Source: an uncultured Pseudomonadota bacterium (GTDB lineage Bacteria > Oederibacteriota > Muellerivitia > Muellerivitales > Muellerivitaceae). From it: a DNA stretch of 64,000 nucleotides. Positions within the stretch are counted from its first letter, which is position 1; the number at the start of each line of letters is the position of its first letter. The stretch lies in contig CAVYRH010000016.1 of the NCBI GenBank assembly GCA_963770835.1, forward strand, positions 1 through 64,000. The letters are read 5' to 3'. The notes below the pieces were generated by a model. That model made no database searches. It had not been told where the DNA came from and saw nothing but the letters and a program-made list of their open reading frames with translations. The position numbers were made by a program, and so were the translations under genes. Below, piece by piece: positions 21,525 to 37,475 of this stretch.

Positions 21525-21561
21525 CCTGCACATGCCTGTCGCAAAAAGGATGGTGTGCAAC
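21525..21561 (+). CRISPR. 37-bp CRISPR-like repeat, copy 1 (CCTGCACATGCCTGTCGCAAAAAGGATGGTGTGCAAC)
   Basis: Identical to 29111-29147, one mismatch to 37439-37475; TGCACA/TGTGCA dyad. Confidence 0.6.
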
Positions 21562-22462
21562 TTTTTCCCTCCGAGAGGGTGCGTTCGAGGGCTTCCGCCA
21601 CCGGCCGGAGGCTGTCCGGGAACTCCTCCAGTTTTTTCTCGGCCATCTCAGCCTCTATGCAACCCGTAATCTTCCGGGCTCCCGAATTGAAGGTCCGCAC
21701 CTTTCCGTCGTTTCTAACCACCACAATTCCGGTCTTGAGGGAGGAAAGAACGCTGTGGTGGTATTCCAAAAGGGATTTCAATTTACGGTTAATTTCGGTC
21801 ATTTTTTGGATGGAAGTGTCAGCTTGTCCCGCCAAAATAAGATTCATCCCCTCCAGCCTTTTTCTTTCATCTTCATGTTTTTTCGTTTCCATGGCGAGAA
21901 AACCGCTCATGGCGGCGGCAAGGAACAGGAAGGGAAATCGGACCAGCGAACCCGTGTCCGAAACCAGGAATTCCCCCGTAGTCTTATATTGAAGAAACAG
22001 GTAGAGGGCACAAGCCACAATGGCCACGGAAAAGACGCTTTTCACATCCTGGGAAAGGGCTGATATAAAAACAGTCGTAAAAAAGATTAAAAAAAGATCC
22101 GTGTCCTGAATGCCCGAAAGATAAAGTCCGGCTGTGATAAAAAGGGTATCGGCCACGAATAGTGTGGAAAGAAGCCCCTTATTTTCAAACCACCGGCTTC
22201 CCACAAAAAACATTCCCACGACAGAACAGGCAAAACAAGAGAGGAAAATTTCCACCCGCGCCTGGTAAATCGCTTGGTCATTTTTTTCGTTGAAGAACAA
22301 AAGAACAACAATCACCAAAAAAACCAACGACCGGAAAAGAATGAGAATTTCTTTGGTGCCGAGTTGGATGGCTGGACGCATTAAGATGCTGAAGTCCCCG
22401 CGAAAGGGCGCCAAGCGAGATGTTGGGTTCTTGGGTATTTCCAGCGTTGCCGTGTTGATCAT
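21562..22462 (-). pseudogene. Membrane PAS sensor (likely histidine kinase), truncated within the PAS region
   Basis: TM region, coiled coil, PAS start SLKTGIVVVRNDGKVRTFNSGARKITG; breaks at LSEGK where the repeat begins; no HisKA/HATPase. Confidence 0.75.
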
Positions 22463-22475
22463 GACTTAAAGAATG

Positions 22476-22491
22476 ATCAATCTTCGTGCCA
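22476..22491 (-). promoter_or_regulatory. Possible sigma-54 -24/-12 promoter
   Basis: TGGCACGAAGATTGAT versus TGGCAC-N5-TTGCW; -12 imperfect. Confidence 0.3.
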
Positions 22492-22663
22492 CCTTCCGGT
22501 CAAAAAAACACTAAAGAAGGGGCATTTTCATGAATCCCAAAAACAGTCCAGATGTTTTACGACCCATTGGGTAACTTTTACCCTTTCCATCATTAGATGG
22601 CATCAAAATAAAATGTTTAACAATCCGTGAATTTTTAAAATTTGACGGCAAGTACGATGGGAA

Positions 22664-22939
22664 TTATTTGAGATGAAAACCACGGTGAATCAAGAAGTTC
22701 TCGACTCGGTTTTTTACGATCATTAAGGCGTCGCCGGACAATTTTTCACCTGCTTCCAATTCAATAAGGGAACCTATCAATTCAAATAAATCGATAAAAA
22801 CTGATTTATGCCGAACGGTGAGTTCACCCGGAGAGAGGAGCACTTCTTCCATAGCGCGGGATGGGGGGTATATCTTGTCGAGGGTTTCCGTTGTCAGACG
22901 GGTGTCCAAGATATGCCGCAGAACGGCTTCTTTTTTCAT
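22664..22939 (-). CDS. Hypothetical protein
   Basis: 91-aa ORF with AAGGTG SD-like sequence. Confidence 0.6.
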   Translation of the reverse strand: MKKEAVLRHILDTRLTTETLDKIYPPSRAMEEVLLSPGELTVRHKSVFIDLFELIGSLIELEAGEKLSGDALMIVKNRVENFLIHRGFHLK

Positions 22940-23014
22940 GGAACACCTTTAGGTAAACGGTAATCCTAAAGGCATTTTTTGTCAACTTGCACAAAATACT
23001 AGATATTTTTGGCA

Positions 23015-24136
23015 TTAAACTTTTCCATAGGAACGGAAAAACTCCGCTTTAGCCGCTAAAAACCGTCCTTCCGTGATGGCCTTTCGAATCAAGGAAGTTA
23101 TTTCATTCATGAAATGAAGGTTGTGAAGCGAAACCAGCCGAAGTACCAATAATTCCTCAGCTTGGAACAAATGGCGCAAATAGGCCCTCGTATAATTCCT
23201 GCAACATTCACAGGAGCACTGGGAATCAAGAGGGGCGAAATCCTCCGAATACTGGGCGTTTCTCAAGATGACCCGCCCGTTTCGGGTTAAGGCAGTTCCG
23301 TTTCGGGCAATCCGGGTAGGCATGACGCAATCGAACATGTCCATCCCCCGCTCCACACATTCCCAAAGGTCTTCCGGGGTACCCACCCCCATCAAATATC
23401 GGGGTTTGTCTTCCGGCAGATAAGGCGCGGTTTTCTCTACCACCCCATAAATCGCTTCCTTGGACTCCCCTACCGAAACTCCGCCGATGGCGTATCCAGG
23501 AAAGTCAAAGGCCAAAAGCTGCTTCGCGCTCTTTTCCCGCAGGTTAAGAAAATTGGAGCCTTGCACAATACCGTAGAGTGCCTGGTCCTTTTCCCTCCCC
23601 GCTTGACGATGCGTTTGAAGGCATCGCCCGGCCCAGCGGATGGTCCGCTCCACAGATTTCTCCACATACTCCTCGGTTGATGGATAGGGGATGCACTCGT
23701 CAAAAACCATGATGATATCGGCTCCGATGCGGTGCTGTAATTGAGTGGCGGATTCAGGTGTCATTTCCCATTTGCTTCCATCCAAGTGGGATTGGAACTG
23801 AACCCCGTTCTCCGTAATCTTCCGCAGGTCCGCAAGGCTGAACACTTGAAATCCTCCGCTATCGGTTAAAATTGGTCTGTCCCAATGCATGAAAGCATGC
23901 AGACCTCCCGCTTTTTCAATGAGATTGGCCCCGGGCCTCAACATGAGATGGTAGGTGTTGGCCAGTAAAATCTCGGCCCCGCAAGTCAGAACATCCTCAG
24001 ACGCCAAGGCTTTCACTGTGGCCTGGGTACCCACGGGCATATAGCACGGGGTTTTAACCTCACCGCGAGAAAGCTTCAGGACCCCAGTGCGGGCGCGGGT
24101 TTTAGGATCTCGGGCGGTAATTTTAAACTCATGCAT
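23015..24136 (-). CDS. tgt: tRNA-guanine transglycosylase
   Basis: [38 protein letters not shown]. Confidence 0.97.
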
Positions 24137-35944: not shown

Positions 35945-35970
35945 GAATTTAGGAATTAAAGTTGCGCAGG

Positions 35971-36000
35971 TTGTCCACGACGGGGACCCTTCGTGAACAA
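35971..36000 (+). repeat. 30-bp site (TTGTCCACGACGGGGACCCTTCGTGAACAA)
   Basis: 28/30 to consensus. Confidence 0.92.
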
Positions 36001-36073
36001 CGAAAATAATGGATAATGGTAGTCAGGCACTTTCAGCATAAAGATGGTTTACAAAATTTGGGGGGCAGACCAC

Positions 36074-37084
36074 ATGGACTTGCTTATTGATACTTACGGT
36101 ACCAAGATCGGCGTAAATGGCGAGCGCATCGTCCTTTCTTTTCCGAAAGTTAAAGAGAAAAAAGAATACCCCATCCATAGACTGGAGAAAATAGTCATAC
36201 TGCGGCCGGCCTCGCTCACGACTCACGCGGTTCAGCTCGCGATTGAGCACGATGTTGATATCGTCTATCTCGGTTCTTTTGGCAAGCCCATCGGAAGACT
36301 ATTTTCAAGCGAACCAAAAGGGCTGGCGAGTCTTCGTAAAGCGCAACTGGAAGCGTCAACTTCGCTTGAGCGATCGTTCAAAATCGCGAAAGAATTAGTG
36401 CGGGGCAAATGCGCTAATCAGCTCGATCTACTCCGATATCTCGCGTACCGATATAAAAAGGATGTGGGGACCGAACTCTTACAAGCGCAGACCCTTTTTG
36501 ATGTCTTGGACAATGTCCCGTGTTCGGAGAAAGGCAAGGAGCAACTCCTTGGTACGGAAGGATACATCGCGGACAAATATTTCAGCGGGTTAAAAAAATT
36601 CTATAGATTCCCGGGCCGAAAACCACAAGGCAGGGACCAGTTTAACAGCGTACTGAATTATGGTTACGGCATCCTTTACAATGAAGTCGAACGGGCATGC
36701 CTTTACGTCGGTCTTGATCCATATCTCGGCCTCTACCACAGTGAACGCTATGGTAAGCCTGCCCTCGTTCTCGATCTTGTCGAAGAATTCCGCGTACCAA
36801 TCGTCGACTCGGTGCTTTTCCCGCTTTTCATAGAAAAGAAACTGAGCCAACGGAAATATTTTGAAAAAACCGCGGTTGGGCAATATCTGTTATCGCCTGA
36901 GGGAAAAAGCGTCGTGGTGGGGGCGATCATGAGGCGGTTGAATGAAACGACGGCATGGCGGGAGAAACAATATACTCTTAAGCAGATCATAGATAACCAG
37001 ATTAGGGCGTTGGCACGTCACTTTGTCGAAAAGGAGGACAAGTACAACCCGTTTCGTGCGGAAAAACTTTTTTCGATATCATGA
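36074..37084 (+). CDS. cas1: CRISPR-associated endonuclease Cas1
   Basis: LLGTEG, NSVLNYGYGILY, GLDPYLGLYH, LVLDLVEEFR; catalytic E/H/E present. Confidence 0.95.
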   Translation: MDLLIDTYGTKIGVNGERIVLSFPKVKEKKEYPIHRLEKIVILRPASLTTHAVQLAIEHDVDIVYLGSFGKPIGRLFSSEPKGLASLRKAQLEASTSLERSFKIAKELVRGKCANQLDLLRYLAYRYKKDVGTELLQAQTLFDVLDNVPCSEKGKEQLLGTEGYIADKYFSGLKKFYRFPGRKPQGRDQFNSVLNYGYGILYNEVERACLYVGLDPYLGLYHSERYGKPALVLDLVEEFRVPIVDSVLFPLFIEKKLSQRKYFEKTAVGQYLLSPEGKSVVVGAIMRRLNETTAWREKQYTLKQIIDNQIRALARHFVEKEDKYNPFRAEKLFSIS

Positions 37085-37416
37085 ACAATTTCAATGCCAT
37101 CACCCTAGTATCGTGGGAAACGCGCGACTGGCGGCATCGGGACAAGGCGGTTCTGTGGTGCAAGAATTATGGTCTCAAGCCGGTTTTACGGAATATGTAT
37201 ATCGGAAAATTGTATTCAAAAGAACGGGAAAAACTCGAGAATAAATTCAAGGGGGCTTTCGCAAAGAAGACCGAAAAGTTTTTTATCAGTACGCTCTGTC
37301 GGTCGTGCTTTGAAGATTCGGTTTTCGGTGGTACGCTTAGTTCTAAGAAAGATGATGTCGACATTGAAACTGCGTTTGAACTTATCCAAATCACGCCGAA
37401 TTCGGCGGAACGGTGA
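37081..37416 (+). CDS. cas2: Divergent Cas2-like protein
   Basis: ATGA-coupled to cas1; LVSWE, CKNYGL, YIGKL, LCRSC follow the Cas2 pattern. Confidence 0.75.
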   Translation: MNNFNAITLVSWETRDWRHRDKAVLWCKNYGLKPVLRNMYIGKLYSKEREKLENKFKGAFAKKTEKFFISTLCRSCFEDSVFGGTLSSKKDDVDIETAFELIQITPNSAER

Positions 37417-37438
37417 AAAACACCAATAATTGCAGGCT

Positions 37439-37475
37439 CCTGCACATGCCTGTCGCAAAAAGGATAGTGTGCAAC
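37439..37475 (+). CRISPR. 37-bp CRISPR-like repeat, copy 3 (one variant base), 22 bp after cas2
   Basis: CCTGCACATGCCTGTCGCAAAAAGGATAGTGTGCAAC. Confidence 0.65.

Follow-up and report, generated by a model that had tools for sequence, protein, structure and literature searches.

The cas1–cas2 module and its repeats

The window analysed here is a stretch of 64,000 nucleotides (nt) from an uncultured bacterium (assembly GCA_963770835.1, contig CAVYRH010000016.1, positions 1 to 64,000). On its + strand it carries a cas1 gene encoding 346 amino acids (aa) (36044..37084), a cas2 gene encoding 111 aa (37081..37416), a 22-bp leader ending in GGCT (37417..37438) and a 37-bp repeat, R3 (37439..37475), which is the leader repeat of the module. 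Two further direct copies, R1 (21525..21561) and R2 (29111..29147), lie upstream on the same strand, and no repeat is found downstream of R3 in the contig. As an earlier note on this DNA had described, the three repeats are separated by 7,549 and 8,291 bp, the single mismatch among them is a G>A change at position 28 of R3 (the A variant; R1 and R2 are of the G variant) and R3 starts 22 bp past the cas2 stop codon. The TGCACA/TGTGCA dyad reported for the repeat is present, although its folding is weak (z -1.4 to -2.0). Here and in related genomes, such repeats enclose DNA pieces typically 1–12 kb long, among them whole gene clusters that match other bacteria.

The host genome, G000, consists of 4.58 Mb in 26 contigs and is 96% complete with 3.65% estimated contamination (C-labels denote contigs of the genome named and L-labels denote fetched loci). 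Window positions 62357-64000 overlap the start of contig C23 at 100%, and from this sequence match the two contigs likely adjoin. The earlier note had advised a genome-wide search for more repeats. Counting copies at up to four mismatches to the 37-mer, we detected 27 in G000, distributed over four regions: C3:48-102 kb (11), C3:383-401 kb (9), C15 (4) and the window (3). The repeat was present in 7/61 genomes (G000 and six relatives) and the reversed pattern, used as a control, in 0/61. Given these 27 copies and the empty control, the repeats are not a product of chance. G000 also contains four cas1 and four cas2 copies, 99–100% identical to each other, and Cas1 at 96–100% identity was found in 4 of the 60 other genomes, in three other genera.

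The Cas1 protein passes the TIGR00287 model with 251 bits at a cut-off of 72; the next-best profile scores, all below cut-off, were those of the I-G, I-D and I-C models (Cas1g, Cas1d and Cas1c). E172, H232 and E247, which we take to be the catalytic residues, are invariant in 7/7 aligned homologues and align to the Archaeoglobus fulgidus Cas1 structure 4n06, which together with 7cr6 is nearest to the module proteins. The close Cas1 homologues are records of candidate division FCPU426. The Cas1 phylogeny called for in the earlier note, a quick tree of 90 proteins with a midpoint root, placed this Cas1 in a clade of its own with a Shimodaira–Hasegawa-like approximate likelihood ratio support of 100, and six FCPU426-type Cas1s nested among Patescibacteria-type and metagenomic ones. 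The downstream 111-aa protein matched no Pfam or NCBIfam model. Its AlphaFold model, built from 17 homologues with a mean predicted local distance difference test score of 77, gave six hits at E<=0.001 (best E 1e-4), every one of them a Cas2 structure, and on this predicted fold the protein is a divergent Cas2 adjoining cas1. Canonical Cas2 bears a YD motif; at its place this family has an invariant W (W12), followed by E in 10/17 sequences. A CxxC motif and an extension of about 25 aa (predicted, with low confidence) are further features. The search for Cas2 homologues returned just five close proteins, and a Cas2 profile run over 301 genomes of the phylum of G061 matched only G061 itself; either the clade is rare or the profile is narrow. 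No clade member was found in viral contigs searched with two short patterns, and Cas1 matches in three phage records reached just 25–30%.

A similar layout was observed in distant loci, by which we mean those with cas1–cas2 of this clade and other repeat sequences, independent metagenome contigs among them. Each has its own 37-bp repeat 2–45 bp after cas2, of a sequence that varies across the clade, and GCT directly precedes the first repeat in 17/18 clade loci. All eight repeats of G061 form one run directly after cas2, with gaps of 140–4,007 bp. In three distant loci (L039, L040 and L043) cas1 directly follows an apparent transfer RNA gene, as judged by eye. Truncated modules, with a partial cas2 or a leader alone plus the repeat, occur without cas1 at L060, L071, L073, L096, L099 and L101; they are cut at six different points, and one begins just past a 28-bp palindromic site.

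The earlier note had seen no normal CRISPR array and no effector gene, and this proved to hold for G000 as a whole. No RAMP, Cas9, Cas12f/TnpB or Cas4 match and no Cas3 over the cut-off was detected in a search of six effector families that did not include the large Cas12 and Cas13 models. The Cas12f/TnpB and Cas4 searches each gave matches in 8/14 control genomes; with the Cas9 model, none of the control genomes scored above the cut-off. When the genome was scanned for repeats at a spacing of 50–95 nt, one unrelated 84-nt tandem and no CRISPR array were detected. Rfam returned only a group II intron and one sub-threshold match, and no protospacer-adjacent motif (PAM) was visible by eye in the source DNA beyond about 19 traced ends of the inserts described below. 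Three of the other genomes (G014, G023 and G027) possess separate conventional cas genes. At G014:C6:312-315 kb (L108), an open frame of 1,314 codons, weakly matching a Cas12f-type zinc finger, lies beside a cas4–cas1 frame and possibly marks a separate type V locus.

DNA enclosed by the repeats

The 69 same-strand spacings in the seven genomes ranged from 30 bp to 45.7 kb with a median of 1,807 bp, the largest of which may not be single inserts. Two were at most 50 bp long, 5 fell at 51–200 bp, 17 at 201–1,000 bp, 30 at 1–5 kb and 15 above 5 kb; 45/69 exceeded 1 kb and 62/69 exceeded 100 bp. The shortest inserts measured 30, 38, 67, 68 and 73 bp. The hunt for 30- to 40-nt spacers proposed in the earlier note yielded the two spacings within 50 bp and, in G000, no CRISPR array. 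The 21 inserts of G000 total 82 kb, or 1.8% of the genome. By four-base composition, 18/20 inserts of at least 600 bp were more atypical than three quarters of native windows and 9/20 were more atypical than 95% of them. Cargo outside the window includes methylase, polymerase V, RHS, outer-membrane and insertion sequence (IS) genes as well as cas1 pieces. Redundant or broken inserts are numerous, and at some of its ends inserted DNA is 100% identical to DNA of the host itself. Three captures, differing in their cut points, took in one and the same IS200-like transposase region (G000:C3:62318-64335, 73628-75249 and 393393-394695). When 200 distinct repeat flanks were compared (seven genomes; most but not all repeats), only two leader flanks were common between genomes. 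Since the flanks are unshared although cas1 is 96–100% identical, this argues for independent recent acquisition.

The insert between R1 and R2 (insert 1; 21562..29110, 7,549 bp) is collinear with DNA of G001, a congener of the host, at 78–80% nt identity, and shows 68–74% identity to the host's own copies. The G001 match is split over two contigs; on the insert, 18 bp within tgt separate the ends of the two. All genes of the insert are on the - strand. A PAS histidine kinase gene (21562..22462) breaks off at R1 after its codon 300, compared with about 600 aa in homologues, and a spoIID/lytB gene (27995..29110) is cut by R2, with about 41 N-terminal residues of the G001 homologue missing. Both end genes are cut exactly at the repeats and both continue in G001. 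Between them lie tgt (23015..24136) and queA (26961..27998), each an intact second copy with 84% and 77% aa identity, respectively, to the host's copy on C5; a gene for a 730-aa membrane glycosyltransferase-like protein (24129..26321), 41% identical to the host's C5 copy; and a GNAT acetyltransferase gene (26324..26902) with 91% aa identity to G001 and no second host copy by tblastn. Judged by sequence, insert 1 is one chromosomal piece from a related species, and the donor was not among the 30 family genomes searched for it.

Other inserts, in either orientation, were likewise cut mid-gene out of longer sources. An 885-bp insert of G000 is contained at 100%, reversed, within a 971-bp insert of G004, a genome of a different genus, and a 559-bp insert of G027 was found at 100% inside repeat-free DNA of both G004 and G000. 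A 7,805-bp insert of G000 holds an intact cluster of norB, hemerythrin, Crp-type regulator and ScdA-type genes, and its first 7,723 bp match repeat-free G004 DNA with zero mismatches. This norB cluster is the only match in G000. It is flanked by the repeat variant typical of G023, G027 and G030 and nested between host-type repeats.

The DNA next to the repeats carries a common signature. Reading inward from the repeat, G is avoided at position 3, and A or T is found at position 4, T at 5 and A at 7; for positions 3 and 5, p~1e-9. The profiles of the 69 left and the 81 right ends correlated with r = 0.73 over positions 1–10, and 361 interior window pairs used as a control gave a mean of -0.01 and a maximum of 0.52. 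A matrix built from these 150 ends separated 40 held-out ends from interior DNA (p = 5e-7). Over all 190 ends, position 3 was G in 8 and C in 42 (p = 1e-6), so AT-richness is not the cause. The flanks of the 28-bp palindromic sites, taken as another control, had a different base profile. A repeat entering continuous DNA would mirror its flanks too, but where the left and right flanks of a single repeat were traced they come from unrelated sources, and the signature is therefore most likely that of two DNA ends handled by one enzyme.

The three repeats of the window had been presented as one series with kilobase-scale spacers; here R3 proved to be the leader repeat, and the 8,291-bp segment not a single spacer. 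The left flank of R3 is the same in three other G000 copies. Further repeats lie downstream of the leader repeat in 9/9 leader-bearing multi-repeat arrays elsewhere, and in 8/9 of these every copy is identical to the leader repeat. R1 and R2 are located upstream of R3 and are of a foreign variant, identical to the leader repeat of G014 (on its contig C5), and hence the three do not make up one array. Both belong to a block of 14.4 kb that has a 28-bp palindromic site at each boundary (21012..21039 and 35367..35394, + strand). Just inside its left edge, an open reading frame for a membrane protein (21094..21524, + strand), for which no homologue was found in G000 or the fetched loci, reads into R1 without a stop codon and was likely cut by it. 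A 6.2-kb piece follows R2 (29148..35395); it is 98% identical to C12:17374-23571, joins R2 at a point internal to that source, ends at the palindromic site and contains a repeated unit of about 3 kb of small genes and a RelE/ParE-type toxin–antitoxin pair. Next come a single-gene cassette with no family match (35417..35944, + strand) and the cas module, each starting at a palindromic site; the site before the module (35972..35999, + strand) is the start of the shared cas1–cas2–repeat module in 5/9 FCPU426-type copies. By these sequence matches the segment of 8,291 bp is composite and does not represent one spacer, and R1–insert–R2 is likely an imported piece of another array.

The 28-bp palindrome (11-6-11), presumably dif/Xer-like by its shape, occurs in the window at 799, 21012, 35367, 35972, 40486 and 62303, and gave 115 genome matches on both strands, some sites being counted twice. 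On C15, C12 and C3 the sites have a single orientation and a spacing of about 1 kb. They bound cassettes common to contigs (C12:25931-26822 = C15:2920-2029 = C3:412 kb) and look like a second cassette system. A group II intron at 40497-42437, one of 12 genome copies at 99.9–100% identity, sits in the middle of such a palindrome, and several other copies start at the same half-site. The unit of about 3 kb mentioned above (SpoVG-like, ~100-aa and ~120–150-aa proteins; GC hairpins) was observed in window 29148-35395, C12, C3:401-412 kb, C10, C22 and L064. It occurs in tandem and in diverged copies, usually ending at a 28-bp site, and is possibly a small satellite-type element.

How the inserts may have been acquired

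The earlier note had offered three origins for the long inserts: capture of multi-gene DNA by Cas1–Cas2, dispersal of a self-targeting array and misassembly. The contiguous sources, the mid-gene cuts and the mirrored ends favour the first. We consider it quite probable that this effector-less Cas1–Cas2 is an integrase tolerant of length, which inserts a linear fragment by both of its ends into the 37-bp repeat and duplicates the repeat in doing so. In the mechanism we propose, two Cas1 active sites would each hold one end of a long fragment, and the DNA between the ends would form a loop in the manner of a transposase paired-end complex and would not lie along Cas2 as a duplex of about 35 bp. 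Insertion would take place at the leader repeat, with the ends joined by Cas1–Cas2 to its opposite strands, so that the repeat is duplicated and Cas2 would no longer set the length. Any DNA ends could serve as substrates, whether of neighbour DNA taken up, mobile elements, the cell's own chromosome or the module itself. ComEC is present in G000 but also in 10/14 control genomes, and is thus a weak pointer to DNA uptake. Repeat–insert–repeat blocks would pass from genus to genus, either carried along in larger captures or by movement between 28-bp palindromic sites, and such transfer would place R1–insert–R2, with its foreign variant, upstream of cas1. The clade would then represent a return to long-DNA integration with Cas2 kept. 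The enzyme pair is likely a gene-capture device in a soil bacterium and not a store of immune memory. The module itself may be selfish, its captures proving useful now and then. More tentatively, and with somewhat more doubt than confidence, we suggest that the repurposed CRISPR integrase is a general gene-acquisition machine which inserts kilobase pieces of neighbours' chromosomes into the host and which, spreading now between genera of one family after a Patescibacteria-type entry, gave the host working genes such as its only detected nitric-oxide reductase cluster.

Several observations weigh against two-ended integration. The enzyme activity itself is deduced from sequence, the end signature is weak and, in distant loci, marginal (43 ends, p = 0.017), and among 57 extracted inserts 4 were traced at both ends or nearly so, most having no source in the data analysed. 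The norB match ends 82 bp before the right repeat, and those 82 bp match elsewhere in G000. One cas1 copy of G000 has an in-frame TAG and another is truncated by a repeat; an effector may exist outside the six searched families. Array growth at the leader end is presumed, and one leader array has mixed repeats. Moreover, several clusters are leaderless (e.g. C3:383-401 kb), one repeat pair is inverted and no conserved trailer follows the last repeat. The inverted repeats lie 109 bp apart at the end of that leaderless cluster (G000:C3:400723-400905).

These last features would be expected if Cas1–Cas2 joined only one end and homologous or site-specific recombination resolved the other, which is the main rival explanation. 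It would also account for spacings of 25–46 kb, for composites such as 29148-37438 and for the cas1 fragment at C3:60758, and for the cases that are very long or lack a leader a share of one-ended joining, with recombination afterwards, is probable. As an account of the system as a whole it is unlikely, however, because each of three inserts (559, 885 and 7,549 bp) could be placed over its whole length on a single contiguous source, the same end signature is found on both sides of the repeat and the number of repeats appears to grow with the leader variant kept. The few short inserts, together with the insert ends that are 100% identical to host DNA, could instead be read as remnants of a short-spacer array dispersed by recombination of its spacers with matching genomic or foreign DNA. 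We regard this as very improbable: 2/69 spacings are at most 50 bp, no regular array of this repeat family was found in the seven genomes or the distant loci, no effector was detected, several inserts are contiguous in their sources, and each contiguous insert would need two spacers from the same donor in the correct order.

Mirrored flanks would also result from a palindromic target preference if the 37-mer entered continuous DNA, be it as a mobile mini-element or as the att core belonging to an unrelated recombinase, and the genome has 12 tyrosine-recombinase matches. We regard this explanation as no more probable than a dispersed array, since the flanks of single repeats, where both could be traced, derive from unrelated sources (at R2, spoIID on the left and the C12 element on the right; also C3:75250), the repeat stays 2–45 bp after cas2 across loci with differing repeat sequence, and no empty site with contiguous left and right flanks was found. 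Finally, among the public contigs listed (four DNA runs) none bridges R1 or R2 with both flanks, a further point against two-ended integration, and with the contamination estimate of G000 this leaves an assembly or binning artefact to be considered. Such an artefact is extremely improbable, as the same layout with different inserts was observed in six other genomes of the FCPU426 family and in the distant loci, including independent metagenome contigs, a public contig of run X2, which may be the source sample, spans cas2, the leader and the whole of R3, and an assembler would not generate the end signature. No RNA dataset carrying the locus was found among the public runs listed.

Comparison with known systems

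By the defining tests of each, the module is neither a CRISPR–Cas immune system nor a type V-F locus nor a casposon. It resembles a CRISPR adaptation module in its cas1–cas2 operon, its leader, its 37-bp repeat with a terminal dyad and its inserts between direct repeats. It differs in an insert length that is unconstrained (30 bp to more than 10 kb), a leader of 2–45 bp, a Cas1 in its own clade and the lack of any Cas4, effector or PAM that we could see. Type V-F (Cas12f/Cas14) loci have 37-nt repeats ending TGCAAC, and the repeat studied here is of the same length with the same end. The link to type V-F suggested on these grounds was nevertheless not sustained, as G000 has no Cas12f/TnpB or Cas4 match and the repeats are not separated by short spacers. 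Long spacers of ordinary arrays, of at least 100 nt, are given in PMC4524480 as 0–6 per 140–1,315 unique spacers and as mostly transposon-like. They share with our inserts the presence of oversized DNA between two CRISPR repeats, whereas here 62/69 spacings are longer than 100 bp and insert genes break off at the edge of the repeat. The systems of PMC13059738, which are without cas1–cas2, were considered and are unrelated. We found no description of a system of the present kind in the open full-text literature, a search that left most subscription papers and supplements outside.

A casposase, according to PMC6977970, is a Cas1-family enzyme that inserts a long DNA by both its ends at a specific target, which is duplicated in the process. 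By analogy, the two-ended joining of long DNA with target duplication proposed here would be alike. Unlike a casposon, the present system includes Cas2, and the inserted DNA is arbitrary, lacks terminal inverted repeats and carries no gene for the enzyme; the shared module measures only about 1.5 kb from palindromic site to repeat, and the insert ends are non-repetitive. Its Cas1 has 346 aa, compared with 431 aa in chain 6opm, which we take to be a casposase. The same paper proposes that gaining Cas2 turned the casposase towards short spacers, treats the fixed spacer length of Cas1–Cas2 as architectural and sees in it a step separating CRISPR integrases from casposases (PMC6977970). If our reading is correct, this architecture model could be tested directly by comparing a canonical pair with a Cas1–Cas2 that joins DNA from 30 bp up to more than 10 kb. 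Developers of integration and DNA-recording tools would, moreover, be interested in an enzyme of two proteins able to place arbitrary kilobase DNA at a site of about 40 bp.

The remaining comparison is with integrons, in which IntI and attC cassettes give rise to tandem acquired genes between recurring sites beside the integrase gene. The integron model TIGR02249 had no match at E<=1e-30 in five genomes, nor in controls. Tandem acquired DNA and recurring sites beside an integrase gene are features of both systems. In the system described here the enzyme is of another class, the acquired DNA consists of random fragments and not of preformed cassettes, the separators are identical direct repeats, and the 37-bp repeats are tied to cas2 and not to an integrase gene. 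If Cas1–Cas2 does integrate long DNA by both ends, horizontal gene transfer would have a new route, one that depends neither on homology nor on ends encoded by the donor; on the more tentative reading given above, the module would be a Cas1-based counterpart of integrons requiring no preformed cassettes.

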